Below are positions 41,853-64,000 of a stretch of DNA of 64,000 nucleotides, piece after piece; positions within the stretch are counted from its first letter, which is position 1, and each line of letters begins with the position of its first letter. A model generated the notes under the pieces. The model was not told the DNA's origin. It searched no databases and saw only the letters and a list, made by a program, of their open reading frames with translations. The translations under genes were made by a program, and so were the position numbers. This stretch comes from Nemertoderma westbladi (Eukaryota; Animalia; Xenacoelomorpha): the NCBI GenBank assembly GCA_032718475.1, contig JAUCBJ010008868.1, forward strand, positions 23,248-87,247, written 5' to 3'.

Positions 41853-43762
41853 AAGTTTTGTGATTCTGTGGTTCTTTTGAGGGACCCCTGCCACGCACTG
41901 GTCCCGTTGCCATCGTTACCATTAGTACTCGTAGGTCCATTATGGTAGACCGAATGTTTATTTGGATCCAGTTTTCTGTTCCCGCGCCTGTAGAAAACAT
42001 TTAGTAGTCAGCAGATATATCATTATTGCATTAACTACCAATGAGAGCCAATCTCCATTAAATTCAGCTCATGATAGAATAAAAACGTTTTTGTCAATTT
42101 CCAAAATAGGGAGGTGCCCCCCCCCCCCCCCCCCCCCCCCCTTAAATTACCCTAGACCTCACGAAGATATATGCCAGGTATTAATCAGCTCAGGATTATG
42201 AACAAGGAAATGGCAGGTTTTGTTTTCATTTGGCGCGCAGCATAATTATTATATTCGGGAGAAGTCCTACTTCACTAATTCATTATCAACGTTAAAACAA
42301 TCTGTTTTTTTTTAATAGCCGCTTATTATGTAATAAATTAACAGATTTTAACAATATTTTATGTGCGATACTGCGATATTATAAGAGTGACACAGAGACG
42401 GCTGAATGAAACTGTGGCAGATCAAATGCTCGCTGGTACATGAGTAATAATTATACTAGCAATAGTTTTGCGGTAATTTGCAATGACAGAACAACGCGCG
42501 GAGGTTGCGTGGAAAATTTTGTAAGAAAGAGTGTGTCAGTACAGTTAGCTGAAAATTTTTTGAATATAGAAGTAGTCTTTTATGCAATACACATACTGTA
42601 CATGTGCGAACAGAGTGGTCCCTTTATGGAATTCTTTACCAGGAGAAGTAGTCGATTCACGTACCTAAAAAATGTTTTGTACAAATCTGAAAAACGTTGA
42701 TCTACTAAGTAAGGTTTTGCAAGTTTAATCGTTTTGATGAATAATATTATATTACAGTACATTGATTTATCTTATATTACATTAATATACAATGGTGCTT
42801 TTTTTCGTTGTAATTTTAAAAGTGTTGATTTACATTAATTACATGTGGCAACAGTTACGTTTATGGTAAATACTGTCATACTCTATGTAAAAATCATCGC
42901 GGCCTCCATAGTGCTATGCCTGGACGGTCTTCTCACATGCATACTGAAACATACTAACCTGCGTTTGTTTAATACTAATAATAATAAATAGAAAAGGAAA
43001 ATATGTCGACGCAGTACTGCAGTACTGTACAGTACCGGTAATGTTTAATAAAGACGCATGGAACCAGAAAATGTGCTAATATATTGTTGTACCAGTATGT
43101 ATATCATTTATTGAAGCCCATTTCTGCATTTAGTTCAGCCAACAATAAACAGCGGATATGTGAATCAAAATATTAAAATTATAGATGTCAGGATCTCAAT
43201 GATATATTTAATTGATGAATGAATATATACAGTATATGTTGAATATTTTTATAGGTGGTAAATACCACCACTACCACCCCCTTCGGTACGCCCTTGTCTA
43301 TAGCGGCAGTTTGGAAAACCCCACGTGGTTAAAAAAAATGGCGTAAAGAAATGGGGATTTTGTAGAGAAATCGGAGGGCGTTTATTGTTTTTCCATATTT
43401 CGAGTCTAGTGTTTAGTAGACATTCATTAATTTCTACAAATTTTCATCTCGCATATTTAAGAATCCGCCAACAACGTGGCTCGCTCCCATTGTGTAGCCT
43501 ATGATGAAGAGTGAAGTTTCCCATACTGAGGTAAAATGTATACTATTGCTGAAAAAAAATGGTTTTATATAGCAGATAGGGAGGCTGTTAATCCCTCACC
43601 AGCTGTATCTAAAAACATTGATGAATTATTTCACTATAAGGTAGCATTTGTAGTTTAACTTTAACGTAAAAACTTTCGAAAATCCGACGCATTTTGATTA
43701 AGTTACAGTAATGTATTATGCCTATTCATATTTGTACACATAAAACCCTTAGGTACTCTCGT

Positions 43763-43833
43763 GGCGTAGTGGTCAGATGGTTAAGGCGTTGGTTACATTA
43801 CAGATAGGTTACGAGTTCGAATCCCGGTCGGGA
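43763..43833 (+). promoter_or_regulatory. tRNA-like Pol III internal promoter module within 5' LTR
   Basis: A-box-like GTAGTGGTCAGATGGTTAAGGCG and B box GAGTTCGAATCCC at tRNA spacing. Stems are imperfect, so not a functional tRNA. Confidence 0.65.
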
Positions 43834-43881
43834 AATTTGTATTTTGGGGCCATTTATTTTCATTTGGTGCTAATTGGTGGA

Positions 43882-44193
43882 CCAATGAGAAGCGTACAAC
43901 GTAGCGAAAGATGAGCCAGGCCAATCATGGGGCATAAATTATCTTATTGCTCAAATGTGAGGCTATGGAAAATTCTGTTAGGATTCCATGTCCCAGATTA
44001 GTGTAAGGGCCGGATTGCGTTGAACGATGAGCTGGACCAATCATAGGGCACAAAGCACTTTATTGCTCAAATGTGAAGCTGTGGAAAATTCTGTTTGGTT
44101 TCCATGTGCGATATTTAGTATAAAAGGCCGGTTTGCCTTCGGTTATCACTTCTTACTGCCTCGTTACCCCTTCTTAGTACGTTATTAATTAAA
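43882..44193 (+). promoter_or_regulatory. LTR Pol II promoter: CCAAT boxes, TATA, Inr and candidate poly(A) signal
   Basis: CCAAT at 43882, 43921 and 44037. TATAAAA at 44119-44125. Inr-like TCACTT at 44146-44151, with the A 29 nt after the TATA start. ATTAAA at 44188-44193 followed by a GT/T-rich tract. Confidence 0.6.
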
Positions 44194-46894
44194 TTGTTAT
44201 TTAGTTTATTTGGTTTCTTGTTGAAACTTTGTTTGATAAATCCTTTGTAAAACTGTAAATATACTGCAAATTCCTGAACATGTTTTCTTTTGGTCCAACT
44301 TTGGGACAGCCAAACATCGGGAAGATGGCAGCCTAGACCGTTAGGCCGTCAGCAACGCAGGGAAAAGATGTCCACAACACGCTAGCACCCATATTGGTTC
44401 GACCGCGCACCCCCTTTGCCCTTCGAAATACTCCACTTGCCATGCAGCGCCCGCTTCGTGAGAAAGGTAAGACTTTGTTCGACGCCCTTGCCCGCCGTAA
44501 GACCTATAAATCAGGGTAAGCGTGACGCCGTCCTGGACGCCGCAAATTTAGGATCAAATAGTTATATTTAGACAGGACCCCCCCCTTTGTTATGTCCTAC
44601 GAACCCCTGGGTTAACCTGTACTTCCTACAGGTGCGAACTATTGCCATTCGTCAGTACGTGAGTACATAGGTACGGACAGCATATGTTCCATAATTTAGT
44701 GATTCGTAGTACTGACTGTTTGGTACCGGTTCGCTTTGTAGAACGTACATTAGTACCCCCCCCCCCCCCCCCCCCTGTCTGGAGTTAGCTATTTGATCAG
44801 GCAAGGAGTATTTCTGCTACCGGCACACTGCTTGGCCTAGGGAGGTTTATTAATATCCTATCGCGCCTTGCCACGTACTGATAGGTATTGCTGCTAACTA
44901 CCGCAGCAACAAAGTTCTAGAATTAAATTAGTATACCAGATCAGCTAACGTACGGTAGCGATTAACCCCTATTTCTTATCTTACAACCAGAATCTGGTAT
45001 TTGTGCCGATCACGGGTGTAGTTACTAACACCGTGGTTGCCCATTGGGTTGTGGATAGGAAGGAGAGAGCTTTGACGTCATTTGTGAGTATAAAGTTCTA
45101 CAAAACGCGACTAGTTTATTTTAGTAGCTAGCGCACGGTATCATTTCGGTCAGAAAATCACTAAAACCTAGTAAAAGGAAATACACGAAATTGTTTTATT
45201 TGTAACACACCCACATACACACGCCCTAAAACATATTCGCCCTTAGAGTTCTACTAGCTATAGCGCACTATATATTACTTTAGGCAGAATTTATCTGTAT
45301 TTGTAAATTAGGATCTGATATTTAGTTGCGGTAAGAGAGAGTATTTCATTTTCGTTATTAAACTGTTGGTTCCTGTTCAGCAGTATTGTTACATTTAGGC
45401 CTGACCCTTTAGACTGATTTCGTACAGGGGGATCAGTTATCGTTACATTTAGGCACGACCCCTTCTCGACTGATTTAGGACTGAATCAGTGTTGTTACGC
45501 TAGGTCTGTTAACCCACTAGCTCGTATATAAACCATATAAATCACACCGTGGCAAGTTACTGTATTTAGGACTGTCAGTGATAGTTAGGATTCGCTGCGC
45601 GGGGATTGTTTTCCCGTGAGTTTGGTCTGTTACTGTAACTGTACATCTGCCTCACCGGTTAGAGGACAGGTATCCTTTTGTCTAGTTTTGTAGGCATTAG
45701 ACCCGCTCACGTACATAGAATAGATACTAGGCTCTGTTCCAGTAGTCGTTTGTGTATTGTATCTGTTTGTTTAGATATCCTGGACTGGGATTTGTTGTCA
45801 GATACTGTATGAGCCCGTATACATTACTAGAGTCTCATAGTAAGATACATCGTTACTAGGATCTGGTAAGCGGTATACTACTGGACCTTACAGTAGGAAG
45901 TACTATATAAATTAGTGTATAGTATTGTTTAGATCTGTACGCTTTGTAGTGCGTGCGCACAGTAGGAAGTACTATATAAATTAGTGTATAGTATTATTTC
46001 GATCTGTTAGCTATTGAAAGTAGGAGATATTTAAAATTTAAGGTTAGTAAATTTAGTAATTTAGAACGTCCCCTGCTTCAGTAGGCTTTTAGGGTAGCTA
46101 GTACTTTTGTATTTAATATTTGACTAGCTAACAGTTAGTTTGTAGTACTTTGTTTTACGCCGTGTGTGTGCGGTGTTACTTTCGGTACTTGAAAAGGTAC
46201 ATAGGGTTTAAAGACCAATTTGTATCGGTACCTAGGAAGATTTTTCGTAAGCGTAGAAGTAAAACTCTCACCTTCGACTTTTCAGGACTCAAGGACTCAT
46301 TTCTGGACCGCTTCGAGGATTAGACCGCTTTTCGCAAAGTTTGGGAGACAATAAATTCGTCCGCGCCGCCGAAAAACGGAACGACCCACGTCCGGTTTGT
46401 ATTTGGGAATTTGCATGACTGGAAGATCAAAGGAACATAAGTTTTACGACTCGCGTCGTTCAAACTTAAGAAAGCACAGTAGTACTCAAAATTTGTGGGT
46501 TTCCTGTCTATTAGTAGTGTTGTTGGTACTTATTTTCCCGTTAGACGTTGCTGTTTTGCCTATTATTCGTACTTGTTGATCTATATTTTGGTAACGTATA
46601 CCGTTATCTCATTTATTCGTACAAATTTAGCCGGTAGGCTAGATTATTACTTATTTTATTGTATACTTTGTTAGTTTATTTGTACCGGTTAGGGTATATA
46701 TATGATATATATATATATCAAGGTAAGTTTGACATTTGTACATTTCGACATTTTGACATTTCGACATTCTGACTTGTTGATTTATTTGTACCGGTTAGGG
46801 TATATATATACTATATATACCAAGGTAAGTTAGACACTTCAACATCCAGACACTTTGACATTTTATTACCCGTACTTGACGTATATAATAAGAC

Positions 46895-49800
46895 ATGAGT
46901 GACACACCCCATTCAACGAGATACCCACCTACCGACTATGACTCGTGCGACCCGGACAGATCGACAGTAGACGAACCGAGAAGGAGAACCCGAGATTCCA
47001 CCGATGTCACACCGCTTGCGTCGCCGGTACCCAGAACGGAAATACCGGAAGCCGCAATGCGTGGCGACGGCAGAATCGAAGATTTCCTTACCGTCCCGCA
47101 GACTAGATCGCGGGAACCGGACATGGTAAGTTCGACTGGAAGCCAGGAGAACGTTATTAGAAGTATAGGAGGACACATGGCCCAGATTACTCGGAACCTC
47201 GGAGAAGGTTTTCGCGTTTTACGCGAGTTAACCACCCCGATGTCGAGATACGAGTTCTACACCTTACAGGTAAGGATAGAAAGTAGGGTACATGCTTCCG
47301 TAGATAAACTTAGAGGTTTACACGAACTTGCAGAGTTGCGTGGCGACAACTTTACTCAGGTAAAGATAATAGATAAATTAGTAAGTGCGAGAGAAAGCAT
47401 TATCCAGTTTAAGTCAGTAATAAGATTGTCTCAACAGGAGCAGTTTGACCAACTGCTAGGTGAGTCAGTTTCGGACGCGTTGTTACAACCCGAAGAGGAA
47501 GAAGAACTCTACTGCCTGGATGGAAGGTTGGAAACGCTCACCAATTTTCTTCGTAGATGCGGCGTACCGATCGACGAACCGGAAGTCGAATCGCGAGGGA
47601 CGACGGAAGTTCTTACTACGGAAGGCTCGCGAGCCTACCAGCATCCACCTCTGGATAGATCGTTCGTTAGCATACAGAGCGACGTTGGCAACGTTGGCGA
47701 CGTTAGTAGAACAGCGTCTGTAATTACTCGACAACAACAGGAGGTTGCACGCTGACAACAAGTCGCCGAGGAAGAAGCGCAACACCAGATGGCACAGATC
47801 GCCATCGAAGGAGAGAAACAACATAGAGAGGACGAGGCGAGAATTGCGCAACTCAAGGCGCAAGCCGAATTCGAAGCTTCGGAAATGCGCAGATTGGAGG
47901 AAAACTTAGCGCAAGAAGCAGCCGCGGCGGCGGCAGCCGACGAGCTAGTACGAGTTGCGGCGGTAAACGCAGCTGAGTTAGCACGGAAGAAGGCAGCGTC
48001 TGACGCTCGTGCTAAGTTGGAGGCACGACAAATAAACGCTCAATTAGCTATACAGGAAGCGGAGTTAGCGGCACAACAACAAGTAGCAGATCGACGCGAA
48101 AGGGAGATGCAACTACAGTTCGAACTGAATCGTAGATCGCGCGAGGCAGCGAACGCGCAAGCGGACCTCGAACTCGACGCGAGAGATAGATCTATAAGAT
48201 CGCGAGCTGGACACGACTTGTCTGCCCTGGATCGCATGGAAGCTCGATATCGCGGAATACAGAAGCGGATCGAGGAAGGAAGTGTGGGAGCGATAGATCG
48301 AGGAGAGGAGTTCGTCGAGGATTACTATAAACGTTTTCCCCAAGTTATTCCTATGCTCAAGCCCACGACTTCGATAAAACCGGTCTTTGTTACGAAACCT
48401 AAGGAAATAACGCCTGTGCGTTCGACGCAAGGCAACAGGTTTGTTGTGACGGAAATACCGCAACCTAGGGCGACCTCATCGCCAATTTTAGCAGGTAACA
48501 TAACTAGTCCACCTACAGTAAGTCGTAGTCTACTTGTAGGAAGAGAGGAACCTGCGTTTATGACCATTAAACAGGTGAGTAAACCATTACAAGTTAAACC
48601 TGTGACGTGCTGTGCAAATCCAGTTATTTATAGACCGACTACGGAACCCGACTATTTCACTCGACCGTTGACACAATGTTCGATGCAACCTACGACTTCG
48701 TGGAAGGCTTGCGAGCCTACCGAACTACGGAGGATGGATGTGGGTAGTACCCACGGGATCGGACAACGTATAACGAGACCTACGACTTCGTGGAAGGCTT
48801 GCGAGCCTACCGAACAACGGAGAGCCGTAGATTCTGGACCACAACGGACGAGACCAAGAATAATACGCCGGACACGAACCCGCCAGCCACCTTATCCGGA
48901 TGACAGCGACTCATCTAGTGACTCGGAGTCGACGGAACGGGAAATTCTCTGTTCTCTGGCAACGCGAAACACTGGCGCACACTGGTAGACTACGTAGAGT
49001 CCCAGATCGCTAAGTGTGCTTTCACCTCGACGGAGAAGTTTAATTACTTGCTCCAAGTTCTGTCTGGTGAGCCGAAACGATTAGCGGAAACCTTCATAGG
49101 TGTTCCCGATGCCTTTGAGTTGGCGTACAACCGTTTATATTCGATTTACGGAGGTAACGTCGCCATGGCTAAATCCATTATTGAAGACCTCTGCAGAGGA
49201 GGCAACATTTCGAAACCGATCGACCTTTTACAACTCGCGGACGAAATCAAGAACGCTATAGGGACTTTACGATCTATTGGACAACTCGAGTACGCTAACG
49301 CACCGACGGTTCTCATTCGAATAATCGGTCGACTTCACCATCGACTCCGACGAGAATGGCGACGCATCGAGTACCAGCGTGAAGAGGCCGGAGGGTTATT
49401 AAAACTCACCGATGTCTATCAACTGATTTCACGGGAGGCCATGATCGAGACTCGATCGAACTATACCGATCACCATATCGCGGCGGAAGGGATAGCTATT
49501 TCTGCGCCGAATCGGACCAAACCACTTCCGACGAACGCGAAAGCCGTTACTTACGCCACCCCTACTGAGACTTCTAAAGTTCTGACGCCTATCGGCACCA
49601 CGCAGCCACGACAACAGTTGCCGGCGGACTTTGTGGGATGCTCATACTGCGAGCGGAACGGCAGAAACCACGTGGATACATAAACTACGTGGATGTCGCG
49701 CTTTTAAAGAGTTAGGGATCGAGGAGAGGAGACTCCAAATCCGATCTCTAGATTCCTGTTGGAGATGTATGAAGCCAGGACACGTCCGGAAGGATTGCCC

Positions 49801-50026
49801 GAGCGACGATACATGTTCTCTGTGTGGACGTAACCATGACGCGTTGCTTCACACAACTAGTCATACTCCGACCAGACGCTTTCGACGAGAGCATCCAGAT
49901 AAAGCGGCTAGATGCGACACGCTTTATAAGGAGCGTGCGCCGCGCGAGATCCGTACCTTTTATACAGACTGTATGGATCAGTCAGGATCATCGGACGAGG
50001 ACGGGGAGGAAGACGACACTTTCTAG
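46895..50026 (+). pseudogene. gag: BEL/Pao gag, disrupted (ORF pieces 46895-47755, 47789-48988, ~48950-49683, ~49670-50026)
   Basis: Ala/Glu-rich coiled coil; capsid-like FSGNAKHW...EKFNYLLQVLSG in a shifted frame; Zn motifs CSYC..HKLRGC, CWRCMKPGHVRKDC and the BEL-typical CSLCGRNHDALLH. In-frame TGA at 47753, frameshifts near 48945 and 49670, TAG at 50024. Confidence 0.85.
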
Positions 50027-51241
50027 GTGCATGCAGGTGAGGAACAGCCATCGATAACGCTCCTCACACAGAACCAACTGAAAGGGTTTAGCGTGATTCC
50101 TATAAAGATTACCGGAACCCGAGGGAGCAAGCGTATATACGCCATCTTAGACTCTGCGTCATCGCATAGCTATGTCGACGAACAAGTAGCCGACGTAGTT
50201 ACGGACATGAGTCAAGGTAAGACTGCTCAGTATACTGTAAGTAGCATGCATGGTAAGAGAGCGATCCCTGTGACGAGAGTAAAACTAACTTTAGACACTC
50301 TTCTTTCCAAAGCAGAACACAGCAAGGAGGAGCGCTCATTACTTCTGGTAAGAAATTTGACCTTTGCAGCTACGAAGGACTTTAGTAACTTGCTCGGCCC
50401 TGTGCCAGAGCAATCACCGGAAGATCGTAAGTATTTCCGACACCTTGGAATACCGGAATGTCCTGTTAATTATCGTTCCATTGCGATGTTAATTGGGACA
50501 GACCAGTTTAACTTACATCAGGTATGGGAGACACGCCCATCTGTTATTACAGCGGGCAACCCCTACGCATGTAGAACTCCCATAGGTTGGTATACTAGAG
50601 CACCAATACGTTCACTAGAGGTAAGTGACCAGGAGGACGACGTTTTGAGTACGTGTAGTTTATTGACTAACACGATAGATAATTCTCCTTCACACTCCTG
50701 TGGTCCAATTGTACGGACGGCACTACGACAGACTTGCGTCACTAACGCAGACGCCACCGATACTGACGTAACCGATTTGGACACGACCACACGGACCTCT
50801 GACTTACAACTACTTGCAGTAGACCAGGTTGTATTGACTACTGAAGACCAAAGGGTTGTTGCCGTGGATGACTCGATGAATGAGGATTTTGGAAGGCTTG
50901 CGAGCCTACCGAAAAATCTGAAGGTCATTGACCCCACCCACCAGGCTTCGACACCGGTCGTTGATCTTGGAAGGCTTGCGAGCCTACCGACAGATCAAGA
51001 AGTTGTCAAACCGCCGCACGACGATTCGACGCCGACTAGTGACACCGGAAGGCTTGTGAGCCTACCAGACGCATTGACACTAGCCACCGCAGCGGACGAG
51101 GACGTGGACGAGGACCATGGCGCAGTGCAAGCAGCGCTTGACCGACTGCTGACTGAACGGACCATACAATGGTTGGAACAGGACTCAGCAGAACCCGGTA
51201 GTTACGAGACCGCTATGTCAGAACAGGAAAAACGGTCATAA
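50027..51241 (+). pseudogene. pol: Aspartic protease region of BEL/Pao polyprotein
   Basis: YAILDSASSHSY active-site motif (GAC at 50150), MLIGTD and RTPIGW motifs. In frame with the preceding and following ORFs, separated by single stops. Confidence 0.85.
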
Positions 51242-51247
51242 AATATT

Positions 51248-53830
51248 ATGAGAGATACCATTCGCCAGACCGCGAATGGCCACTATGAGGTTGGTATGTT
51301 GTGGCGCAATGGACAACCTAAGCTCGTTAACAATTACCCGCTTGCTTTGAGGCGACTCAAATCAATAAGGCAGCGATTGTTGCGAGACGAGACGGCCCAT
51401 ATGCAATACAATGCACAACTTCAGACGTATCTCCAAAAGGGATACGCCATTAGGATGTTAAATCCCGAGGTAACCACAGACCAGACATATTACCTGCCAC
51501 ATCATTTTGTTCGACACCCGGACAAACCTGGCAAGGTGCGTGTAGTCAACGACTGCGCCGCGCTTTACCAATGGATGTCTATGAATAGCGAACTGATGGA
51601 CGGGCCGAATATGAACAATAACCTCATGGGAGTCCTAATGCGTTTTAGACAACGCAAAGTGGCTTTCACCTGTGACGTAGAGGCCATGTTTCACCAGGTT
51701 AAGGCTTTGGAGCGGGACAGGGACAGCTTGAGGTTTCTTTGGTATCCGGACGGAAACTTACAACTTCCGCCAGAAACTTACCAAATGCAGGTAAGAGTAT
51801 TCGGAGCCAGGGACAGCCCCAACTGCACCATGTACGCATTAAAGCAGACCGCATTAGACAGACGAGACCAATTTGACCCAGAAATAGTTCGGACCGTGGA
51901 ACGAGATTTCTACGTGGATGACGGCCTCAAGAGTTGTGACACCTTGGAGCGCGCTACAACCGTAGCACACCAACTCCAGGATTGTCTCGCTGAGGGCGGA
52001 TTTCACCTGACGAAGTTCGCTTCCAACGAACCCGAACTGGTGAACTCATTTGACCCGACGGATCGCAGTGGAGGAGACTTAGACTTAGACCTAGAACCTC
52101 TGCCGACGACTAAAGTATTAGGACTTAGTTGGGACCCTAACACCGACAATTTTAGGGTACGTGTAAGGTCCAATGACCAGACTAGACCTCTCACAAAGAG
52201 GACTTGCTTATCGACCATGAGTCGATTGTATGACCCATTGTGTTTCATTAGTCCAGTGATCCTACATGCTAGGATCATACTCCACAGCATTTGGCAAGCC
52301 GGACTGGAATGGGACGACCCCATCCCAGAAAAGTTAGCTGAGCAATGGAGGGACTGGGAAGCCCAGCTGACGTTCCTACAAGACTATACCATACCGAGGG
52401 TATACTTTCTTTTGCAAACCACCTTTCCTGCCGATTTAGAGCTTCACAGCTTTAGTGACGCTAGCAAGGATGGATTGGGGGTTACTTTATACCTTAGACG
52501 ACAAGTGACATCGGACAGCTACGATGTATCTCTCGTTACTTCAAGGGCTAGAACAATGCCATTGAAGTATATGACTGTACCTCGTGGGGAGCTGCAAGCC
52601 GGGACGATATCCACCGATATTGTCAGTCTAGTTCAACGCGAGCTGGAGGCTAACTTGAAGGTCACATATTGGACGGATGCGACGTTGGTACTTTGGTACA
52701 TAAACAACGAAGCGTTTGAGTTCAAGACTTTCGTAGCCAACAGACGGGCTGAAATATTAGACCGGTCGCTCAAACAAGATTGGCGTCACTGTCCAGGGAA
52801 GCTGAACCCAGCTGACATCGCGTCACGGGGGATGCAACCGCTTGACTTTTGTAAACCGGACAATAAATCCTTTTGGTTTAGAGGACCCGACTTCCTACAG
52901 CGACCATCAGACGAATGGCCACCGTTATTCGACGCGACAACCAACACCATACCAGAGGGTGCCGAGATAAAAATCGACAAGGTTGTCAAGTCTAAAGCGA
53001 AAGCCAACGCCAAGGTCAAGAGGAAAAAAGGACGGACGAAATCTGATGACCTGGACGCTAGACCTGACATTACGCCAGACGTCTCACCAGACATTCGACC
53101 AGACGCTTGTACGAATCCTTCGCCGGATGTTCCGCGGGAGATTTCACCAGACGTTTCGCCAGATTGTTCACCAGATTACTCGCCAGATTATTCACCAGAA
53201 GCGACACCAGATTGTTCTCCGGACTGTTCGCCAGATTGTTTGATGGAACTCTCAACAGAATGTCTACCGGACGTCTCACCAGACTTTCCACCAGACATCT
53301 CGACAGACTGTCCACCAGACTGTCTACCAGACTTTGAACCAGACTTTCTGACAGAAGTTACGCCAGACAGACTTTGGGACAGACGACAAGACATTTCGCT
53401 GGATGTTCCGCGCTATGTCTTACCAGACGTCTCACCAGACTGTTCACCGGACGCTTCACCAGACTGTCTATTAGACACTCCATTAGAAGACCCATTGGAG
53501 CGGACCTTTAGAGACTTACCAAATTTGACTTCTTTGGACGACAGAGGTGTGGCCACAGGGATTACACTCCGCTCGAAGAAGGTACTTGACTTACCCCCTA
53601 CAGGTAAGCGTGTGACTAAGGTTAGGAAGCTTACAGGCTCACAGGAACACACTGACACTGTAGAGTTGAAACCGTTACTGCCAGTCGACACATTAGGTGC
53701 GGACGGTAAAGGTAAGACCGTAGAGATTGACGTACTTGGGAACTCAGACAAACCTACCGGAAGGCCCGTGGGCCTACCAAGTCCAGACAAGTATCCACAC
53801 TACGACTACACCTTACCTGATGTACGTTGA
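51248..53830 (+). pseudogene. pol: Reverse transcriptase + RNase H of BEL/Pao pol, with PDxS-repeat linker
   Basis: RT motifs CDVEAMFHQV, FGARDSP and YVDD (51911-51922). RNase H motifs HSFSDASKDG, PRGEL, YWTDAT and NPADIASRG. Frameshift near 53800. Confidence 0.93.
53062..53470 (+). repeat. Degenerate 12-bp coding repeat (CCAGAYNNNTCN; PDxS) in RNase H-integrase linker
   Basis: Translates as PDITPDVSPDIRPDAC...SPDVSPDCSPDYSPDYSPEATPDCSPDCSPDC... Confidence 0.85.
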
Positions 53831-54273
53831 CAGGATAGTGAACCTAACTAGATCATGGACTGACGCGTGCCGCAAGTTAGCATGGCTCAAACGTTTGAGA
53901 CAATATGCCAGAGGCAAACGCGACTTTCCTAGAAGACTTACCTTAAAGGAAGTTGGCCACTGTGAAGTTGATATCATTAGACATTATCAATTGCGATATT
54001 TCGCACGAGAATTCACAGCGATCAAACAAGGTAAACAGATTAAGTCTTCACCGATTTTGAGTTGGAGTCCGATTATTTACCGGGGCTTACTTTGTCACAA
54101 GTCCAGACTCCAAAACATTGACTTTGCACTTGACTTTAGGTATCCTATCATCATACCGCAACACCATGAATTACAGCGCGCTATGATACTGGACGCACAT
54201 GTACAACTCAAACACGTAGGTAGACACCACTGTCTATCACACTTACGCTCGAGGTTTGTACTGATTAGACCTA

Positions 54274-55708
54274 CTACTACTACTACTAGGATCGGCATGC
54301 TGCATTGCAGCTGCATTTTTAAGAATGCTGTGCCGGCTTGTCAACAAAATTGCACCGCCACAACTCCCTATCACCCATGACATTTGCTAGATCATCTGCA
54401 TCTTTAAGGCCAGTGTCCTTTAAGATGCGTCTCAAGAAAGTCACGGGCTGTCCACCATGCTTATTCACTCCATGAGGCTGCCAAAGTACAAGATTATGCA
54501 CTGGCTGGTCCTCACGGCGAAAGCAATGTCCTGCAAAGCGGAGGCGATTTTGTTCTAGTGTCAAGCTTGGGGGAACCAATGAGACACCTCCAATGTTATA
54601 TAGTGTCTGGTTGGAGATGTGTGCATTGTACTTGACACAATAAACTCGGCGTAGCATTCTTGTGAATGTGCCATCCAGAGATTTGGTGTCCTCAGCAGTT
54701 AGAGCCCAGCATGGACTCCCGTAGAGGAGTACTGGAACTACTGCTGCTCTAAATAATCGGACCTTAAGTTTCCGATTAATTCTAGGTGACTTCCAAATCC
54801 TGGAAAGCCTATTCAAGGCTGCCCATGCCTTTCCCTTACGTATTTGAAGGTCCTCACCTGACTTCCGGATCCATGATCCCAGGTAACAGAAGTCGTCCAC
54901 ATGCTCAAGCATACCATCCTTTGAGCTTATGCTCATCCGATCAGAGACTTGCTGAGGACTTTCAAAGTTAACTGTCAGAATTTTGGTCTTTCTGGAGTTA
55001 ATAAAAAGACCAACACTAGAAGCAGCATGTTCTAATGAGCTGAGGAGCCGTTGGGCTCCCTCTAATGATTCTGAGAGTACTCCTAAGTCATCAGCAAAGT
55101 CTAGATCAGTTAGGTACTTGGCAGGATTTCCTCGACTTCTGGAGCCAGTAGGTGGAGCTATCATCACCCCATCATCATTATGATGATCTAAGGACATGCG
55201 TAGAACATAGTCAACCACAATAATGAACAAGAATGGTGCAAGTGTGTCTCCTTGGAGGACGCCCCATAACACTTCAAATGGTTCTGTGTCACCGTCAACA
55301 GTAGACACAAATGTTGTCGAACCATCGTATACTGATCTGATTGCTGCAATAATTTCATCAGGAATCCCATATAATGAAAGTATGCTGAACATACGTGACC
55401 GAGAGACTGAATCAAAGGCCTTGAAGAAGTCAACAAAGATAACAGCCAGATGCCTGTCTTTCTTTTTTGACAATTCTTCAATTATCCTTCTAAGTGCCAA
55501 AATGGGCTCCATGGTCCCACGACCTTTACGGAACCCATTCTGATTTCCACGGAGCAGTCTCTCAATGGGATCCCTGATGCGATTTAATAGAATCCTATTG
55601 TATAGCTTTGCAGCAATCGAGATCAATGAGATTCCCCGAAAAGAACCATAGAGTGTTAGGTTGCCCTTCTTGGGAACTGGCACCAACTTATTTGTTTTCA
55701 TTTCATTT
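54274..55708 (-). mobile_element. 5'-truncated RTE-like non-LTR retrotransposon inserted antisense in the integrase
   Basis: 13-bp TSD CTGATTAGACCTA (54261-54273, 55709-55721), (TAG)6 tail on the minus strand and a ~30-bp 3' UTR. Confidence 0.92.
54319..55690 (-). CDS. Non-LTR reverse transcriptase, N-terminally truncated (no endonuclease)
   Basis: PVPKKGNL, FRGISL, QNGFRKGR, FVDFFKAFDSV, GVLQGDTLAPFLF, LDFADD and FCYLGS motifs; open to the stop at 54319. Confidence 0.9.
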
Positions 55709-56566
55709 CTGATTAGACCTAGTAAGGCACTGAGTTCGGTAACACGGAACTGTATTATTTGTAAGAAGGTGCACGCGAGGATAGGACACCAAGAAATGAG
55801 TGAACTACCACTAGCTAGATTACAGGCGTTTAGACCCCCTTTCACTGAGACAGGGATAGACTGTTTTGGACCCATAATCGCGAAACGCGGAAGGGTACAG
55901 GTAAAACGTTGGGGATTGATCTTCACTTGCATGGCCAGCAGAGCTGTCCATATAGAGCGAGTGACAGACTTGACCACCAATGCCTTTATCCTAGCCTTAC
56001 GGCGATTTATCGCTAGACGTGGATTGGTCAAATCCATATACTGCGACCAAGGGATAAACTTTGTGGGTGCACGGAACGAAATAACCAGAGCTTTGAGAAA
56101 ATTGGACCAAAACCAGATTTCCGAGGAACTACGTCCTCACCGTATTGTTTGGTATTTCAATACTCCAGACAGTCCGTGGAGAGGCGGCGTTTGGGAAAGG
56201 CTGATTGGCTCAATAAAGACAGCTATGGCTAAAGTCGTACCGACGCAACACATCTTGACAGACGACCAACTGACGACGTTACTAATAGAAATCGAAGCAA
56301 TCTTAAATACTAGACCGATCGCTTTGATCCCAGACAATAACGACGTACAGTTTGCCTTGACACCAGCGCACCTGCTTATGCAGGCGCCGACGACATTGTT
56401 GCCCATTTCGGTACCCGTTGATAGTGACGGATACGGCAACAAAGCTTGGAAAATCACTCAATTGCTTGCAAATAAATTCTGGGAAATATGGCAGAAATAT
56501 TATTTGCCCTCTATTTCGACCAGAACCTCTTGGTATCTAAATACCCGATGTTTAAGACGTGGTGAC

Positions 56567-57743
56567 CATACCTAAAGAGGTGAGGTCTCTATAAGGGTGT
56601 GGTCAACAGGCGGCGGCGGACTCGTGAGGGTCTGGAGGCACGTTAAAGTACCACGTAAGTGCAAGGGAGATACTTAAGGCCCTTGTGTCTAACGAACCAT
56701 GAATCGACATGGTGCCGTGATCCGTCTAGTCGGCCTGTTGCCGTATTGCCAGTCCTGTACACAGTAGGGGTGGTGGCATGGTGTGATTTGTGGTTCATGT
56801 GGCGTGAACTATGTTTTGTATGTGGGCGATCAGTGGCAGTTTGCTTGGGGCTTGGATGGGTTCTTTTGGCCATCAGCTGTTCCGTTTTTTTGATACTATA
56901 TGTTATTGTCTCCATGTTCAGCTGATTGGTCTTTGGGATTTGTTCGGGTCTTTAAGCTTTCTGTTGCTGTGGGTACGTGAGTACACGTGATTGTATGTGT
57001 GGCCACTGCGAGTGAGTATGGGAACCCTTGCCAGTTGGACCAGACGCCGCTGGTATTAGTAGGACCATATCTCTACTGCGCCCCAGCATACTTTGTGCAC
57101 ACAAAGTTATTTTGCCCTGACGGCAAAATAAGGTACTCTCGACTCTTTATGAGTTGATACAATTTTGTCCCCTCTGATTTGACCCCGATTTTGTCTTTCA
57201 TGATTATGTCTTCTGTGTGTGCATGGTATGTGTTCGATTTTGTGCTTACCATTGTGTACTTGATTTTGTGAACATCTGTTGAGTACACGTGTACAGTAAA
57301 CTGGTAAGTGGTTACTTGTTCAGTAGCTTTTGAGCTACAGACAGTATTGTCTTTTCAATATTGCCGGCGAGGCAGGTGAAAACGAGTCAAAATTCCATGT
57401 TGGGTAGCGCAAGCCCACGTGGGACAAGACCGTCGGTTAGGCCCAAGGGCGACCTTGGTGCTCGATCGCTATCGACTGGTCCACCTGCCGGTTGACTCTT
57501 TGTTATACTTTTGAGTTGGCTCAATGTACAGTCAGGCCACAGTAAGTTGACAGTAGCCGCCCATCTGGCTACACGTTCGACGAGCTGTGCCGGTGTGATC
57601 GGGGGACCGAAAACAGAACCCGGGAAGCATCGGGCCACCCTCCGGCCCGGTCTGATAATAACATCAGTCAGACTGGCCCCAGGGGTGGTGGAAACACGTC
57701 CGCCTCGTGGGTGCGCCTCCAGGAGGAGCCCATAAGGACGAAA
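56567..57743. mobile_element. ~1.18 kb non-coding insertion of unknown type in the integrase C-terminus
   Basis: Interrupts LRRGD|AVLLAE. No long ORF and no obvious TSD or terminal repeats. GC-rich ends are reminiscent of LINE 5' UTRs (inference). Confidence 0.7.
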
Positions 57744-58451
57744 GCGGTTTTATTGGCTGAAGCTAATCTGAAAAGACGGTTTTGGCTGACTGGAGTCATT
57801 TTGACCACGCACCATACATCTGGTGTAGTGAGGACTGTTACTGTAAGGACTATCGACGGACGTACCGTAGACAGACCTGTACAACGTCTCGTGCTCCTTG
57901 AGGAGACTAGAAACGAGACAGGAGACTACAAATCTCTACCCAATATTGGTAAATAGATGTGGGACCTTGATTGGCCGCCACATAGACCTACTGTATTTTA
58001 GTTATTTGTATTTGTATTACTGTACGTGCATTTGTAATCCTCTTCACTGTAGATAGAGACAGCGGTGGAATTCCATTGTCTTTATACGTGAACATGGAGG
58101 GTAGTACCCTTATGTATCACATAGGTGCGGGATTGTGTGTACAGTAGGAATGGAATTCCACTTGGAACCCACAAGTGAGACAATTTTTCAAAAATTATTA
58201 GACAAATCCATTTATTTGGATTTAAATTTGAGAAAAACGATTCTCCAGTGAAAGCAAATTCTAGAATACAGCTAGATAAAAATTAAAATTAGGGAGGACA
58301 AGAGCGGATGGAAGGCTTGCGAGCCTACCGATAAATTTTTTTTGGAAAAAGAAAATCGGCCTTGTTCTACGTAGTCGTGTCTACTATTATTTAGACCAAT
58401 TAATTCTCGACTGCACTATTTTTCTTGGGAAATGTAGCATGGGAAATTAAA

Positions 58452-58653
58452 AGGTGAGTATTTTAGACTCGCGGCTAGTTTACCCGGAATTCGTTTTTTA
58501 TCGGCACATTTTTTGGATTAGGAGCCAGTGCGAAATCACGCGAACCCGAAATCATTAGGCAAATGGGTTGGGGTTTAGAGCAGAGTTGAGCCAAAAGCCG
58601 ACAAACTCTAAGTCACCACCTCACATCTAACCTCTATTTTGTGCTTCATCTAG
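58452..58653 (+). promoter_or_regulatory. Candidate splice signals upstream of the accessory ORF
   Basis: Donor AG|GTGAGT at 58452-58459. Branch point CTAAC at 58627-58631, pyrimidine tract, and TAG acceptor at 58651-58653, 42 nt before the ATG. Confidence 0.5.
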
Positions 58654-58695
58654 TAGAAACGTAATGATATGTAACCACATATATATTCGTATACG

Positions 58696-61600
58696 ATGGA
58701 GAAGATGTATAAAGAGTTACGTCAAGGGTTTACGCAAGAACAAGAGCACCAGGCGCCATTCAATCGTTATGGAGCTAAAAACTTTAGTGTGTTTGGAGTG
58801 GAGAGTATGGCTAGGAGTACGGCCAAGCTCGCTAAATCCAAGGTGGACCCGAATGTTACGCGACAGCGGTTGGACGCATACAACAAAAGAACGGAGGAAT
58901 TACGCGCGGAGTTCAATGCGTTATATCCCTACGATGCGTTATGCGACGCTAGCGACATTTGCGAGGATCCAGACACCGAAATACGCCGATTGTATCATAC
59001 GCTGCAATATTTGACGGTAAACGAACCCTTACCTGCAGCTAGAGACGAATTTGAAGGAATGCATCTTTATAGACGCGCTCGAGGAGCGGATCCAGAGACC
59101 AAGGACGCGTTCTCCATATACAAACTGTTTTATAAATGTGGAGCGTGTATGCGCGAGCAAGACAACGCGATTCCTATGCAGTTGAACTCGGAGAACCCCG
59201 AGCCGATATTAGCGCGATGTTCACACCACCAAAGTCTATGTTACCAAGAAGGCGGATACCCTTTGACAAATCCGTATCATACGTTTAAAATGAGTGGACT
59301 GAACGCGGGTGAGATCGTTATTTACGAACCCAAATTAGTCGAACCAGACGTCTACAGCATGGTAGTGGACGAGTCTAATAAGTCGACACAGGAGAAACGG
59401 GAAGCTTTGAGCCTCTACAGGGCGTACAAGGCGTACGAGAAAGGCAAGATCGAGGAGTTCGGCGGAAGGCTCGCGAGCCTACCATTCTATTGGATATCCC
59501 ATGATCAAACCGAACCCAAGGAGATGACACCAGAGCTCTTCGATAGTATCACCTTTGCTCAGCGTTTGTCGCAGAGACTACAGATACCTCATGTCGAGAT
59601 GACGCGAGAACCTCAGCCCCATTCTACTGGAGCGATAGTACCGGTTGCGAGACCAACTAGTTTTCCTATTAGTATACCGACCCGGAAGGAGACAACTTAC
59701 GAGATCCCTATAGTTGAACACCCGGAGATCATCTCGAACCTGGATTTCCTCCCATCGGTTACCTTCGGTGATGTGTTAGAGTCAGCTGAGTTGCGTAAAG
59801 TAATAGTTCAAAAAATCGTACGCAATGTGCCTCCACATATTACGGACTTTAAGGAAGTGGATCGCGCGGGGACGGATATCGCACCTTGTATCTTGCGAGG
59901 ATACCTGACGAAGTCGATTCGATTATGGATCGGAGTTGGAACGTTTGAGACCGACACCGATATCGCGACCAATTGGACCGGTAAACCTATTAGTTTCGAT
60001 GATGAAAAGTCGATTGGGAGAATTTGGAACCCTACCGACGATTTACTCGACGATTGGGACGTGACTAGCCGATCTCTAAAAGAGAATGGTTATATGTTTT
60101 ACGATAATGAAGGAGGAAGCCATCAGCAAAGCCTCACTTCAAAGACTATACAGATTAGAGCACCCGATGGCGTGTTACATGTCTTCAGCCGACAGAGGAG
60201 TGATAGGAAGATGCCTATGCCGGAAGGAACGACGCAAAGACACGCGATGATAAAACGGATAGTTAAATCCATGGACCTGGCTTGTAGCATAGAAGCTAGG
60301 ATGTTGCCAAAGGCCGTGCGAGACGTTGTGTTGGATAAGAGCATCGTCAAGATCGGATCCGGTGTACGGGATGACCTTATTAGCGACTTTGCAGGGATGC
60401 CCACGGAAGAGGACCGATTGCCTACGCCATACGTGGATACTAGACCATTGTTGCTTTGGGCTATTGAGCAAGGATATTTTAGGGAGTATAACACGCTAAA
60501 AACTGGGACGGGTTATATCTCATATCTAATGTTCAGTTGGGATTACAAGGAGAGTAAGAGGAACAAATACACGGACGTATACGGAGAGGGAGATACCCCC
60601 GGCGTAAACGAGTTCGAGTCACAGTTGAAGTGGCGAGGTTGCGTGTATTGGGCGATTACTTCACCACCGCGGATAATCTTGCAATACTATTTAGCGATAG
60701 AATCTTCGGTTAACGTTTGTTTCATCGCGGACGTAGTATCCAGAACCCTAAAGCGACACCCGTTATGTCTTGGCGAAGGACATACCTTTTACGATGGAGG
60801 AAGGACGCATACTGATGTATTCCGACGATTTCTCCAACCCTTTTATAACACCGATGCGCACTGCGAAGTTTTCACGCGAGCGGGACTTAGCGTTTTCAGG
60901 GACGTCTATCTCACTCACGCGGGAAGTCTAGTCGACAGACCGTCGATGTTAACGTTAGTACCCTATGACGGGGAACGCCACGCGGAATTCGAACACCCGG
61001 AAGGATCCTGGAAGGCTCGCGAGCCTACCGCCCATCACGACGATGTGGATCCGACCGAGTTGGCGCTAATAGACGAACCGTTACGGCAACTCATAGAGAT
61101 AGAGGAGAACCTTCCGAGGAAGACGCGAACTGAGATACGCAAGTTGGAGAAAAGCGATGCCATGGTTTGTGTACAACCTACGGAGACGAACATACCGACT
61201 GACCCGGATGATGAGAATTATCATGTGGACGGTAGCGCTCGCCCCATCGGAGATCTCATCTATGAGCGAGTTTGGTATCCTGCCAACACTATTTGTGGCA
61301 GATGCGGAGCAACTGGCCATCACGCAAAGAAGTGCGGAGCGAAGCACATATCTCTACCGGATTTAGTATGCAACTGGTGCGGGGATCAGCATTCGCACAC
61401 TTTCTACACTTGCTGGCGTTTCGTGGCGCAGTGTACTTATTGTAATATTAAGGGCCAGAGGGCATCCGAATGTCAACTTAGAGACGTCCCCTATGAGCAC
61501 ATGTCAGTTAAAATCGTTCGACAATTATTCGACCATTGGGAGGACTTAGCAGACGAGCATGTATCGACGCAGCGACGCCGCTTCCCTATGAGAGCACATT

Positions 61601-62448
61601 TGGGATTTTGGGCCGTAAACCCTCTCATAATGTCAAAGGAAGGATATGTATCGGCTATGCCTCAGTATGATGAATTGTTGGAGGTATTGGATATATTGCC
61701 GTTGGACAGTGGATTCAAAGTTGTGCGGGACTATTTCTTACAAGTGCACCCCGACAACAAGAATACTTGGAACTTTCAAACTGTGGTGAACAAGATTACC
61801 GCCGGAGAATTCGATAAACTGCGAGTTGAACAGCGGAATCGAGGAGCCTGGCATTCGATAGCTTGGGCATACCGGAGCGCTTTTTATCACAAACGCGTAA
61901 CCTCGTGCATTCTGGACGAGACCGACGTTTTGCGTGAGACTGGCTTCAAAGCCACGCCGTTAGCAGAGAAGACGCGTCACCCACAGGATGATCAGCAATT
62001 TCGTATACTCAAAGCCCAGAAGGCCGGACAAGAGATTAAGAAGATAGTAAATGTCGCCGAGAGGACGACATCGAAGTCGCAAATCCGGATGACTCGGGGC
62101 ACGGTTTCCCTTGCTAGAGAACCACGCGGAGGGACAGGATACGCTTTGACTGAACCCATTAGGATTCAAACGACGTCAGAGAGTGAGGTGTCAATGGACG
62201 GAACGGTCCTACCCTTTCGACTTCCTCCTAGCGTTGTAGAGACTCGATCCGATGTTAAGCCGACAGTTGGAATCGGACGAGGATTTAGAGGATTGAGCGC
62301 ACGACGGATGTGCGAAACTCCCGTCGTCCCCTTTCCTAGCGTTTTGGAACCACCGACGACTCGACGCCGAAGTCCGAGCCCAGTTCGACCTCGACCACCC
62401 CCCAATCGCACTAGAGGACGTGGACGAGCCCGCTCAGCGAAGGAATAG
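58696..62448 (+). CDS. Accessory ORF of the LTR element: 1250 aa, putative DEDDy 3'-5' exonuclease domain + CCHC zinc knuckles
   Basis: Uninterrupted 3753-bp ORF between integrase and 3' LTR. Motifs YMFYDNEG (ExoI), TIQI, LPKAVRDVVLDKSIVKIGSGVRDDL (ExoII), YVDT and W...QYYLAIE (ExoIII-like). CGRCGATGHHAKKC plus two variant knuckles, and a basic R/P-rich tail. The ORF is certain; the domain call is by motif recognition. Confidence 0.8.
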   Translation: MEKMYKELRQGFTQEQEHQAPFNRYGAKNFSVFGVESMARSTAKLAKSKVDPNVTRQRLDAYNKRTEELRAEFNALYPYDALCDASDICEDPDTEIRRLYHTLQYLTVNEPLPAARDEFEGMHLYRRARGADPETKDAFSIYKLFYKCGACMREQDNAIPMQLNSENPEPILARCSHHQSLCYQEGGYPLTNPYHTFKMSGLNAGEIVIYEPKLVEPDVYSMVVDESNKSTQEKREALSLYRAYKAYEKGKIEEFGGRLASLPFYWISHDQTEPKEMTPELFDSITFAQRLSQRLQIPHVEMTREPQPHSTGAIVPVARPTSFPISIPTRKETTYEIPIVEHPEIISNLDFLPSVTFGDVLESAELRKVIVQKIVRNVPPHITDFKEVDRAGTDIAPCILRGYLTKSIRLWIGVGTFETDTDIATNWTGKPISFDDEKSIGRIWNPTDDLLDDWDVTSRSLKENGYMFYDNEGGSHQQSLTSKTIQIRAPDGVLHVFSRQRSDRKMPMPEGTTQRHAMIKRIVKSMDLACSIEARMLPKAVRDVVLDKSIVKIGSGVRDDLISDFAGMPTEEDRLPTPYVDTRPLLLWAIEQGYFREYNTLKTGTGYISYLMFSWDYKESKRNKYTDVYGEGDTPGVNEFESQLKWRGCVYWAITSPPRIILQYYLAIESSVNVCFIADVVSRTLKRHPLCLGEGHTFYDGGRTHTDVFRRFLQPFYNTDAHCEVFTRAGLSVFRDVYLTHAGSLVDRPSMLTLVPYDGERHAEFEHPEGSWKAREPTAHHDDVDPTELALIDEPLRQLIEIEENLPRKTRTEIRKLEKSDAMVCVQPTETNIPTDPDDENYHVDGSARPIGDLIYERVWYPANTICGRCGATGHHAKKCGAKHISLPDLVCNWCGDQHSHTFYTCWRFVAQCTYCNIKGQRASECQLRDVPYEHMSVKIVRQLFDHWEDLADEHVSTQRRRFPMRAHLGFWAVNPLIMSKEGYVSAMPQYDELLEVLDILPLDSGFKVVRDYFLQVHPDNKNTWNFQTVVNKITAGEFDKLRVEQRNRGAWHSIAWAYRSAFYHKRVTSCILDETDVLRETGFKATPLAEKTRHPQDDQQFRILKAQKAGQEIKKIVNVAERTTSKSQIRMTRGTVSLAREPRGGTGYALTEPIRIQTTSESEVSMDGTVLPFRLPPSVVETRSDVKPTVGIGRGFRGLSARRMCETPVVPFPSVLEPPTTRRRSPSPVRPRPPPNRTRGRGRARSAKE

Positions 62449-62482
62449 AAAGCGAGTGGAAGGAAGGCTTGCGAGCCTACCG

Positions 62483-62561
62483 ATTTGGATATTATATTTG
62501 GATATTATATTTGGATATTATATTTGGATATTATATTTGGATATTTATATTGGACATTATG
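62483..62561. repeat. 13-bp tandem repeat (ATTTGGATATTAT), about 6 copies
   Basis: Directly visible in the 3' UTR between hairpin copies at 62462 and 62598. Confidence 0.85.
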
Positions 62562-63095
62562 TTTGAATGTTGGGTTTGGAGGAGCGAGATATGGAAAGGA
62601 AGGCTTGCGAGCCTACCGTTAACAATTAGTGCTCAGGAGAAGATATCCAGACCAGCAGGACGAACTTTTAAGATCGTCAGGAGGACTCTTTAAGACTTAT
62701 TTGAAAGTTATTAGCGCATTGTGTTTATATTATATTTGAACTGATTTAATTTGGTGAAGGTTTATTATGTATATTTACAATATATAAAGATTTATCGAAA
62801 GAGTTACAATTATTTGTTCGATTTGTTTTGATTTATTTGTTCTGATTTGTTTAATTTGTTTATCTTGATAACCGAAAGCCTTTTTTGTATTTTAGGCACT
62901 AAAGTTAATTAGTAAATTTGTATTTGTATGTACGATCGATTGTATTTACGCCGTATCTGCAATATTAAGTATGCAATAATTAGATAGTGATTATATTTTA
63001 TATTTTAGGCCCTACCAGTAGATTTAGAAGTAGCTTGTAAATATTTTATATTTCGATTGGTGAAAACAGTCTTACTTACTGTTTTCATGGAGCGG

Positions 63096-64000
63096 TGATG
63101 AATTATTTCACTATAAGGTAGCATTTGTAGTTTAACTTTAACGTAAAAACTTTCGAAAATCCGACGCATTTTGATTAAGTTACAGTAATGTAATATGCCT
63201 ATTCATATTTGTACACATAAAACCCTTAGGTACTCTCGTGGCGTAGTGGTCAGATGGTTAAGGCGTTGGTTACATTACAGATAGGTTACGAGTTCGAATC
63301 CCAGTCGGGAAATTTGTATTTTGGGGCCATTTATTTTCATTTGGTGCTAATTGGTGGACCAATGAGAAGCGTACAACATAGCGAAAGATGAGCCAGGCCA
63401 ATCATGGGGCATAAATTATCTTATTGCTCAAATGTGAGGCTATGGAAAATTCTGTTAGGATTCCATGTCCCAGATTAGTGAAAGGGCCGGATTGCGTTGA
63501 ACGATGAGCTGGGCCAATCATAGGGCACAAAGCACTTTATTGCTCAAATGTGAAGCTGTGGAAAATTCTGTTTGGTTTCCATGTGCGATATTTAGTATAA
63601 AAGGCCGGTTTGCCTTCGGTTATCACTTCTTACTGCCTCGTTACCCCTTCTTAGTACGTTATTAATTAAATTGTTATTTAGTTTATTTGGTTTCTTGTTG
63701 AAACTTTGTTTGATAAATCCTTTGTAAAACTGTAAATATACTGCAAATTCCTGAACATGTTTTCTTTTGGTCCAACTTTGGGACAGCCAAACATCGGGAA
63801 GATGGCAGCCTAGACCGTTAGGCCGTCAGCAACGCAGGGAAAAGATGTCCACAACACGCTAGCACCCACATTGGATCGACCGCGCACCCCCTTTGCCCTT
63901 CGAAATACTCCACTTGCCATGCAGCGCCCGCTTCGTGAGAAAGGTAAGACTTTGTTCGACGCCCTTGCCCGCCGTAAGACCTACCGTATAGATCAGGGTA
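63096..64000 (+). repeat. 3' LTR (truncated by window end)
   Basis: Second copy at offset 19477, preceded by a short purine-rich tract GGAGCGG (weak PPT candidate). Confidence 0.9.
63240..63310 (+). promoter_or_regulatory. tRNA-like Pol III internal promoter module within 3' LTR
   Basis: Same module as 43763-43833 with one substitution. Confidence 0.65.

Follow-up and report, generated by a model that had tools for sequence, protein, structure and literature searches.

A near-identical hairpin repeated twelve times along a divergent giant BEL/Pao retrotransposon

A BEL/Pao retrotransposon in the genome of Nemertoderma westbladi carries twelve near-identical copies of a short hairpin. The element was analysed in a stretch of 64,000 nucleotides (nt), called the window below (assembly GCA_032718475.1, contig JAUCBJ010008868.1, positions 23,248 to 87,247 of the forward strand). 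It is a long terminal repeat (LTR) retrotransposon of more than 20 kb on a long, unsampled branch. The repeated hairpin is a real and strongly conserved feature of this divergent giant lineage, and it is probably an RNA signal. There is about an even chance that the copies are tags on the sense RNA, read by a zinc-knuckle protein of the element so that an RNA of ~17 kb can be recognised, condensed and packed, with swapping from hairpins to duplexes as a likely part of the process. The selection, dimerisation and packing of RNA by long LTR retrotransposons are understood in few models only. Transcript length and packaging capacity have been named as limits on element size (PMC6431247, accessible text).

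Copies of the hairpin

A first-pass annotation, made from the sequence by eye, had listed twelve copies of a 20-nt hairpin on one strand. A pattern scan of the 64 kb bears this out. All twelve copies lie on the forward (sense) strand at exactly the positions listed (Table 1), with the loops TGCG (seven copies), CGCG (three), TGTG (one) and, in the copy at 53759, CGTG with a C8-G13 closing pair. When up to two mismatches are allowed, the only matches in the window are these copies and their own reverse complements; the same motif search in 100 shuffled windows returns a mean of 0.06 matches and a maximum of 1. Downstream of 41.85 kb, the 7-mers GGAAGGC (12/12) and GCCTACC (12/12) occur only inside a copy, and there are no half-sites. 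A covariance model built from the twelve copies and run with its filters off gives them scores of 37-46 bits, whereas no other site exceeds 10 bits. As had been noted by eye, no copy is present in the nested insertions, the flanks or the LTRs; the model finds not even degenerate or decayed copies there, the 3' LTR being covered over the 905 nt that fall within the window.

Neighbouring copies are 0.1-2.7 kb apart along the element. Five of the twelve stand in tandem-duplication units, of 90 nt (48702/48792) and of 78 nt (50891/50969/51047). With these units merged there are eight to nine independent sites, which corrects the first description. The largest hairpin-free gap is 2.8 kb after subtraction of the inserts, which has P ~0.03 for eight random clusters in a post hoc calculation that assumes the LTR end. 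The motif is probably 22 nt long rather than 20 nt, because the base immediately 3' of the 20-mer is a purine in 12/12 copies and covaries with the base immediately 5' of it.

Constraint on nucleotides

Nine of the twelve copies are coding, with five in phase 0, three in phase 1 and one in phase 2, and the copies at 58310, 62462 and 62598 are non-coding, in agreement with the first-pass annotation. The phase-0 copies share their codons, third positions included, except in the loop and at 53759. Protein-level selection for the hairpin is ruled out by the use of three frames, by the non-coding copies and by the shared third positions. In units 1 and 2 of the 78-nt duplication the hairpins are identical at 20/20 positions, against 31/58 positions in the homologous spacers, for which shuffling gives a mean of 15/58 (Fisher p=4e-5). 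That selection on the hairpins acts at the level of nucleotides, as originally proposed, is supported by these comparisons.

Six of the seven gag-pol hairpins sit where 0/120 BEL/Pao homologs align, the seventh lies at a domain edge, and none is found in the conserved enzyme cores. These and the other homolog comparisons used 120 of 1294 BEL/Pao homologs.

The element family was compared over positions 50850-51110 in contigs of four sequencing runs, aligned in three of them, with differences at a frequency of at least 3% listed. The loop of the copy at 51047 reads TGCG in nearly all of the aligned depth of three runs (position 51057), which makes TGTG private to the copy in the window; the loops first reported are correct for the window. 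A second difference within the hairpins is a C-to-T change at the last base, in 1-4% of the depth. Both of the differences listed within the three hairpins are C/T changes opposite G. In the element-wide family comparison, 40 of 1753 differences were listed. Contigs whose flanks cannot be aligned begin or end at 50910, 50963-50965 and 50987, with jumps to 50890-50892 and 50968-50970; these points are edges of hairpins. These joints fit intact hairpins within diverged contexts, although an aligner would favour such seeds. An assembly artefact is ruled out, since the family, hairpins included, is present in contigs of independent studies.

Fold and strand

The predicted fold consists of GG paired with CC, an A·A mismatch, five further pairs and a four-base loop, with the same energy, -7.6 kcal/mol, on both strands. 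When copies are folded with 15-nt flanks, 9/9 have this hairpin in the centroid fold. Six of the seven stem pairs are invariant, and the single two-sided change, from U-A to C-G at 53759, costs two amino-acid changes. The two bases that bracket the motif are T/G in six copies, C/A in four and A/G in two, and never a Watson-Crick pair. Of 144 flank pairs, theirs covaries most strongly (p=0.002, uncorrected). The wobbles U·G and C·A are isosteric.

The first-pass annotation had allowed either a cis-acting RNA stem-loop or a DNA site. Of these, a stem-loop of the sense-strand RNA is favoured, though on thin evidence, and the common orientation of the copies does not separate the two. The VANC-bound DNA motifs of Arabidopsis VANDAL elements also have one orientation (PMC5735166, accessible text), and copying within one RNA would preserve orientation anyway.

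If the signal were instead read on double-stranded DNA, the hairpin sequence would be an imperfect palindrome bound by a dimeric protein of the element, likely the product of its third open reading frame (ORF), which would shield integrated copies from silencing in the manner of VANC. The inverted 8-bp arms about a 4-bp CpG/TpG spacer suit such a site, and the insertion in the window adjoins 40 kb of satellite. The parallel with VANDAL elements extends further: their many motifs are family-specific, as the present motif may be, have spread partly through tandem repeats, much as five of the twelve hairpins stand in tandem units, and belong to elements with an extra ORF (PMC5735166, accessible text). 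However, the VANC motifs described there are 8-9 bp long, mainly non-coding and carried by a DNA transposon, whereas the present motif is a 20-nt imperfect palindrome that is coding in 9/12 copies, varies in the manner of a hairpin and has no copy near the promoter. A symmetric DNA site also needs neither the two-arm change at 53759, nor the U·G/C·A covariation, nor the occurrence of T for C on the sense strand only. A DNA site is thus an unlikely reading of the motif.

Self-complementarity

On the sense RNA, full pairing with a second copy is possible for all four loop variants, and on the antisense strand for CGCG alone. The set YGYG consists of exactly those CGCG-derived loops that retain full intercopy pairing on the sense strand by means of G·U pairs. 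The predicted product of two copies is an 18-bp duplex of two-fold symmetry that contains two A·A mismatches. The computed energies of the homoduplexes are -30.7 kcal/mol for UGCG, -34.9 kcal/mol for CGCG and -32.4 kcal/mol for the 53759 variant, compared with -15 to -19 kcal/mol for two hairpins. Among the 256 possible loops placed in the common stem, UGCG, CGCG and the loop of the 53759 variant rank 15, 4 and 20, respectively. In 10/10 pairings the predictions favour the duplex over two separate hairpins; the pairings of the 53759 variant with other variants are weaker (-20 to -27 kcal/mol). The self-complementary loops are suggestive of a palindrome like those that initiate dimerisation, a feature that the first-pass annotation did not contain.

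Since distant copies are identical, the invariant mismatch included, a reader or all-to-all pairing, and not structure alone, would appear to hold them so. If pairing alone were responsible, the copies would be distributed dimer-linkage palindromes that join two genomes like a zip or fold a single one, and proteins would serve solely as chaperones. The cross-pairing of all sense-strand variants and the preference for the duplex agree with this, all-to-all pairing would account for the identity of distant copies, and the dimer sites of retroviruses and Ty1 are palindromic hairpins (PMC5874298, PMC5454406, accessible text of both). The A·A mismatch, however, weakens the duplex while never varying, which suggests a reader; loops of four bases would be short for kissing; the 53759 variant pairs less well with the others; and the arms of any hairpin favour a duplex in calculations of this kind. 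Pairing without a reader is therefore considered improbable.

Third ORF

A candidate reader is encoded by the third ORF, an orphan that is still open although the gag-pol of the copy in the window is broken. Two word searches (lengths 687-2188 and 366-1166) found no homologs, and neither did a search of 1.84 billion representatives. A protein language-model atlas places residues 340-1000 with DEDDy exonucleases (0.85; top cluster PF01612 + zf-CCHC) and residues 400-760 with PF01612 clusters (0.91; 24/30 matches), with low counts of shared features. A DEDDy identity found no match in Pfam, NCBIfam or the PDB, and a profile of eight bacterial domains also missed the third ORF. A DEDDy 3'-5' exonuclease can thus be taken as a lead for what the model-based comparison suggests. 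Single-sequence structure models reached confidence (pLDDT) values of 34 and 32, which made them unusable, and they were kept out of the fold search. Zinc-knuckle-like Cys/His motifs are present at residues 867-880 and 892-906. N-terminal to these, acidic motifs that would go with the exonuclease lead can be discerned by eye at residues 468-473, 556-561 and 664-669. Contigs of two runs have a 3062-nt deletion in the ORF (59255-62318), which takes out two hairpins but leaves the last two in place; they probably represent a non-autonomous derivative.

Forty nucleotides 5' of the third ORF, a branch-point-like pentamer, a pyrimidine run and a tandem AG (Table 1) form what we take to be a candidate splice-acceptor-like site, and splice-like sites are also present in the leader of the element. 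Such sites would suit an RNA element that is read by a host factor, or by a third ORF resembling Rev or the CERV protein of Cer1, and that aids elongation, export or stability of all transcripts of the element rather than packaging. The hairpins cover gag-pol as well as the part retained by a spliced RNA and are spread fairly evenly, the third ORF has its exonuclease-like lead, and export of Cer1 genomic RNA needs CERV (PMC10309623, accessible text). On the other hand, the export elements known from the same text are single structured regions, an Rfam scan finds no family at the motif, and the exonuclease call failed the profile test. An export or stability element is accordingly judged rather unlikely.

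Proposed role in RNA packing

In the packing proposal the twelve copies would constitute a nucleotide-level signal, maintained along the element, that forms small hairpins in the sense RNA. The reader would be either the nucleocapsid part of Gag, which encodes CCHC-type knuckles, or the third ORF, in both cases by way of zinc knuckles, and it would recognise, condense and pack the unusually long genomic RNA. Pairs of hairpins might then swap into the 18-bp duplex and so cross-link two genomes or fold one. The copies may have spread by tandem duplication and template switching, with selection following.

Several results weigh against this proposal. No copy lies in the LTR or the leader, where the packaging and dimer signals of retroviruses sit (PMC5874298, accessible text). 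Spliced RNA would also carry hairpins, because 4/12 copies are downstream of the splice-acceptor-like site, and selection of the full RNA would then need avidity, that is, twelve copies against four. Local fold stability has z < -2 in only 2/9 copies, and with 100-nt flanks the hairpin is lost in 3/12. The covariation in the stem is one event: the change at 53759 is two-sided, as the first-pass annotation held, but the other pairs are invariant and 38/500 shuffles match it. The covariation of the outside pair was found post hoc and falls to p=0.017 and second rank once three tandem partners are dropped; because this pair tracks loop position 9, shared descent from two haplotypes may explain it. 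The palindrome is a weak argument, since 36/256 tetraloops self-pair, independent changes are few, and CpG decay by itself yields C-to-T in half of the cases. Placement in linkers is by itself weak evidence as well, because half of gag-pol is unaligned to homologs and the hairpins there form only four clusters. Finally, the hairpins occupy 60/261 nt of the region compared within the family and contain 2/18 of the differences, which is not significant (p=0.12-0.17).

This last result also speaks for a reading in which the hairpin would be a functionless hot spot of template switching or gene conversion, by which its copies would be kept alike. Copying among sites is suggested by the two haplotypes found for the 22-nt unit and by their recombinants, and contig joints cluster at the hairpins. 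Nevertheless, decayed and half copies are absent and the boundaries are sharp, the two-sided change is kept despite its cost to the protein, and the copies avoid the enzyme cores. Neutral persistence of this kind is very improbable.

The packing proposal can be carried further, to a giant BEL/Pao lineage with lock-and-key self-recognition, in which a self-complementary hairpin barcode is read by the element's own orphan exonuclease-like zinc-knuckle protein and zips into symmetric duplexes along the genome. This extended form is possible but doubtful. If it is true, a distributed code for dimerisation and condensation lets an LTR retrotransposon carry an RNA of ~17 kb and tell its own RNA from that of the host. 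A 20-22-nt motif in twelve copies, with candidate readers encoded alongside, can be tested using oligonucleotides and isolated protein domains, and a compact orthogonal pair of hairpin and protein would serve as an RNA tag.

Comparison with known systems

The dispersed packaging signals of viruses are usually degenerate. In RNA viruses, several short RNA structures across a long genome act together (bioRxiv 10.64898/2026.06.18.733228, accessible text). These signals are closest in working to the present case, which likewise has many short predicted stem-loops along a genome, coding regions included. The hairpins here differ: they are nearly identical, are 20-22 nt long and all have the A·A mismatch, they reside in a chromosomal LTR retrotransposon, and they are known from sequence.

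Dimer-initiation palindromes include the DIS of HIV-1, SL-A/SL-B of murine leukaemia virus (MuLV), the 19-nt L3 hairpin of avian sarcoma-leukosis virus (ASLV) and Pal SL of Mason-Pfizer monkey virus (MPMV) (PMC5874298, accessible text), as well as the PAL/kissing loops of Ty1 (PMC5454406, accessible text). Like them, the present motif is a short, wholly self-complementary hairpin that is in principle convertible, by calculation, to an extended duplex. Those known sites number one to about five and lie in the 5' region, whereas the present motif occurs in twelve copies, the first at 47620, downstream of the leader.

The third ORF resembles the DEDDy ORF3 of bdelloid Juno/Vesta (PMC5408684) and CERV of Cer1 (PMC10309623) in being an extra ORF with a possible function in RNA handling. 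Those elements are not BEL/Pao, and the accessible text of the two sources mentions no repeated RNA hairpin; the present ORF differs in its length of 1250 amino acids and in its lack of a detectable homolog. The literature, searched mostly without subscription papers and supplements (catalogues of transposable elements) and with sources available in part, yielded no LTR retrotransposon, BEL/Pao or other, whose genes contain a repeated, near-identical hairpin.

Outside the element, a 16-variant pattern matched 4 viral-contig, 37 prokaryote and 37 metagenome loci. These 78 matches are taken as chance or unrelated, because 78/78 are single-copy and none resembles the element. One identical variant accounts for 26/78, perhaps as a conserved gene segment or a bacterial repeat. 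A query with the reverse transcriptase (RT) among viral and metagenome contigs brought up no related locus, and peptide footprints of the hairpin were found in 0/120 BEL/Pao homologs. Repeated 6-mers occur in 12/120 homologs; the SRVSxLP repeats of P0014, P0023 and P0031 were rejected as a lead, as they vary where the stem would fall. A likeness to bacterial repetitive extragenic palindromic (REP) or Helitron hairpins was rejected, as no nuclease of those kinds was found and no insertion signature is seen in the flanks.

The host element

The order of Pfam domains in gag-pol is DUF1759, zinc knuckle, RT, Peptidase_A17, integrase (with a hint of its zinc finger) and DUF5641, which is the BEL/Pao order. 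Homologs of gag-pol number 1294, the closest being 46% identical, and the named nearest proteins are from animals, e.g. mussels and corals. A quick tree of the RT region, drawn with the top 45 of the 120 homologs, gives the element an end branch of 1.7, where the median is 0.31. Contigs of one organism, from three studies, contain the family in abundance.

Table 1. Positions of the hairpin copies and of other features of the element in the window. The flank pair gives the bases immediately 5' and 3' of the 20-mer.
Feature	Position	Strand	Loop	Flank pair	Location and remarks
Hairpin copy 1	47620..47639	+	CGCG	C/A	gag N-terminal region; phase 2
Hairpin copy 2	48702..48721	+	TGCG	T/G	gag linker; phase 1; unit 1 of 90-nt duplication
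Hairpin copy 3	48792..48811	+	TGCG	T/G	unit 2 of 90-nt duplication
Hairpin copy 4	50891..50910	+	TGCG	T/G	linker 5' of RT; phase 0; 78-nt unit 1
Hairpin copy 5	50969..50988	+	TGCG	T/G	78-nt unit 2
Hairpin copy 6	51047..51066	+	TGTG (private to window copy)	C/A	78-nt unit 3
Hairpin copy 7	53759..53778	+	CGTG; closing pair C-G, not T-A	C/A	RNase H-integrase linker
Hairpin copy 8	58310..58329	+	TGCG	T/G	non-coding, between integrase end and third ORF
Hairpin copy 9	59464..59483	+	CGCG	C/A	third ORF, residue 257; phase 0
Hairpin copy 10	61010..61029	+	CGCG	T/G	third ORF, residue 772; phase 1
Hairpin copy 11	62462..62481	+	TGCG	A/G	14 nt 3' of third ORF stop
Hairpin copy 12	62598..62617	+	TGCG	A/G	3' untranslated region
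5' LTR, part matched to 3' LTR	43619..44506	+			99.2% over 888 nt; true end further 3'
gag-pol, BEL/Pao	46892..57956	+			broken by in-frame stops, frame changes and two nested inserts
Nested non-LTR reverse-transcriptase element	54264..55711	-			RVT_1, DUF6451; very high copy; no hairpin
Second nested insert	56569..57746	.			splits DUF5641; no hairpin
Candidate splice-acceptor-like site	58627..58656	+			branch-point-like pentamer, pyrimidine run, tandem AG
Third ORF	58696..62448	+			intact, 1250 amino acids; orphan; downstream of pol
Purine-rich tract, short	63085..63095	+			directly 5' of 3' LTR; putative polypurine tract, from its position
3' LTR	63096..64000	+			cut by window end; no hairpin in this part

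The terminal direct repeats of the element begin with TG. By a crude measure, an approximately twofold aligned depth extends to ~45.9 kb, beyond the matched part of the 5' LTR. The LTR stretches 43755-43835 and 63232-63312 contain, by eye, tRNA-like A-box/B-box patterns, which we take to be possibly a captured short interspersed element (SINE) or a polymerase III promoter; ARAGORN finds no tRNA, at these stretches or at the hairpins. Between 43906 and 44115 the LTR has two diverged 94-nt direct repeats, 116 nt apart, with CCAAT boxes, and a TATA-like box follows close downstream at ~44119.

A single in-frame TAG at 50024-50026, between the gag knuckle region and the next open stretch of the same frame, may be a site of programmed readthrough and not a lesion. 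Between RNase H and integrase, at 53054-53469, a 12-nt repeat encodes Pro-Asp-rich tetrapeptides in a region where 0/120 homologs align. The ends of the nested inserts are marked by contig joints at 54263-55712 and 56568-57747. No long ORF with a Pfam match was present among the ORFs scanned in the second insert, which is possibly a small LTR-type element; a stretch near 56712 within it is presumably like a primer-binding site. Upstream of the element, at 2100-41852, a 63-nt satellite of ~37 kb is directly followed by 51 copies of a 42-nt satellite.

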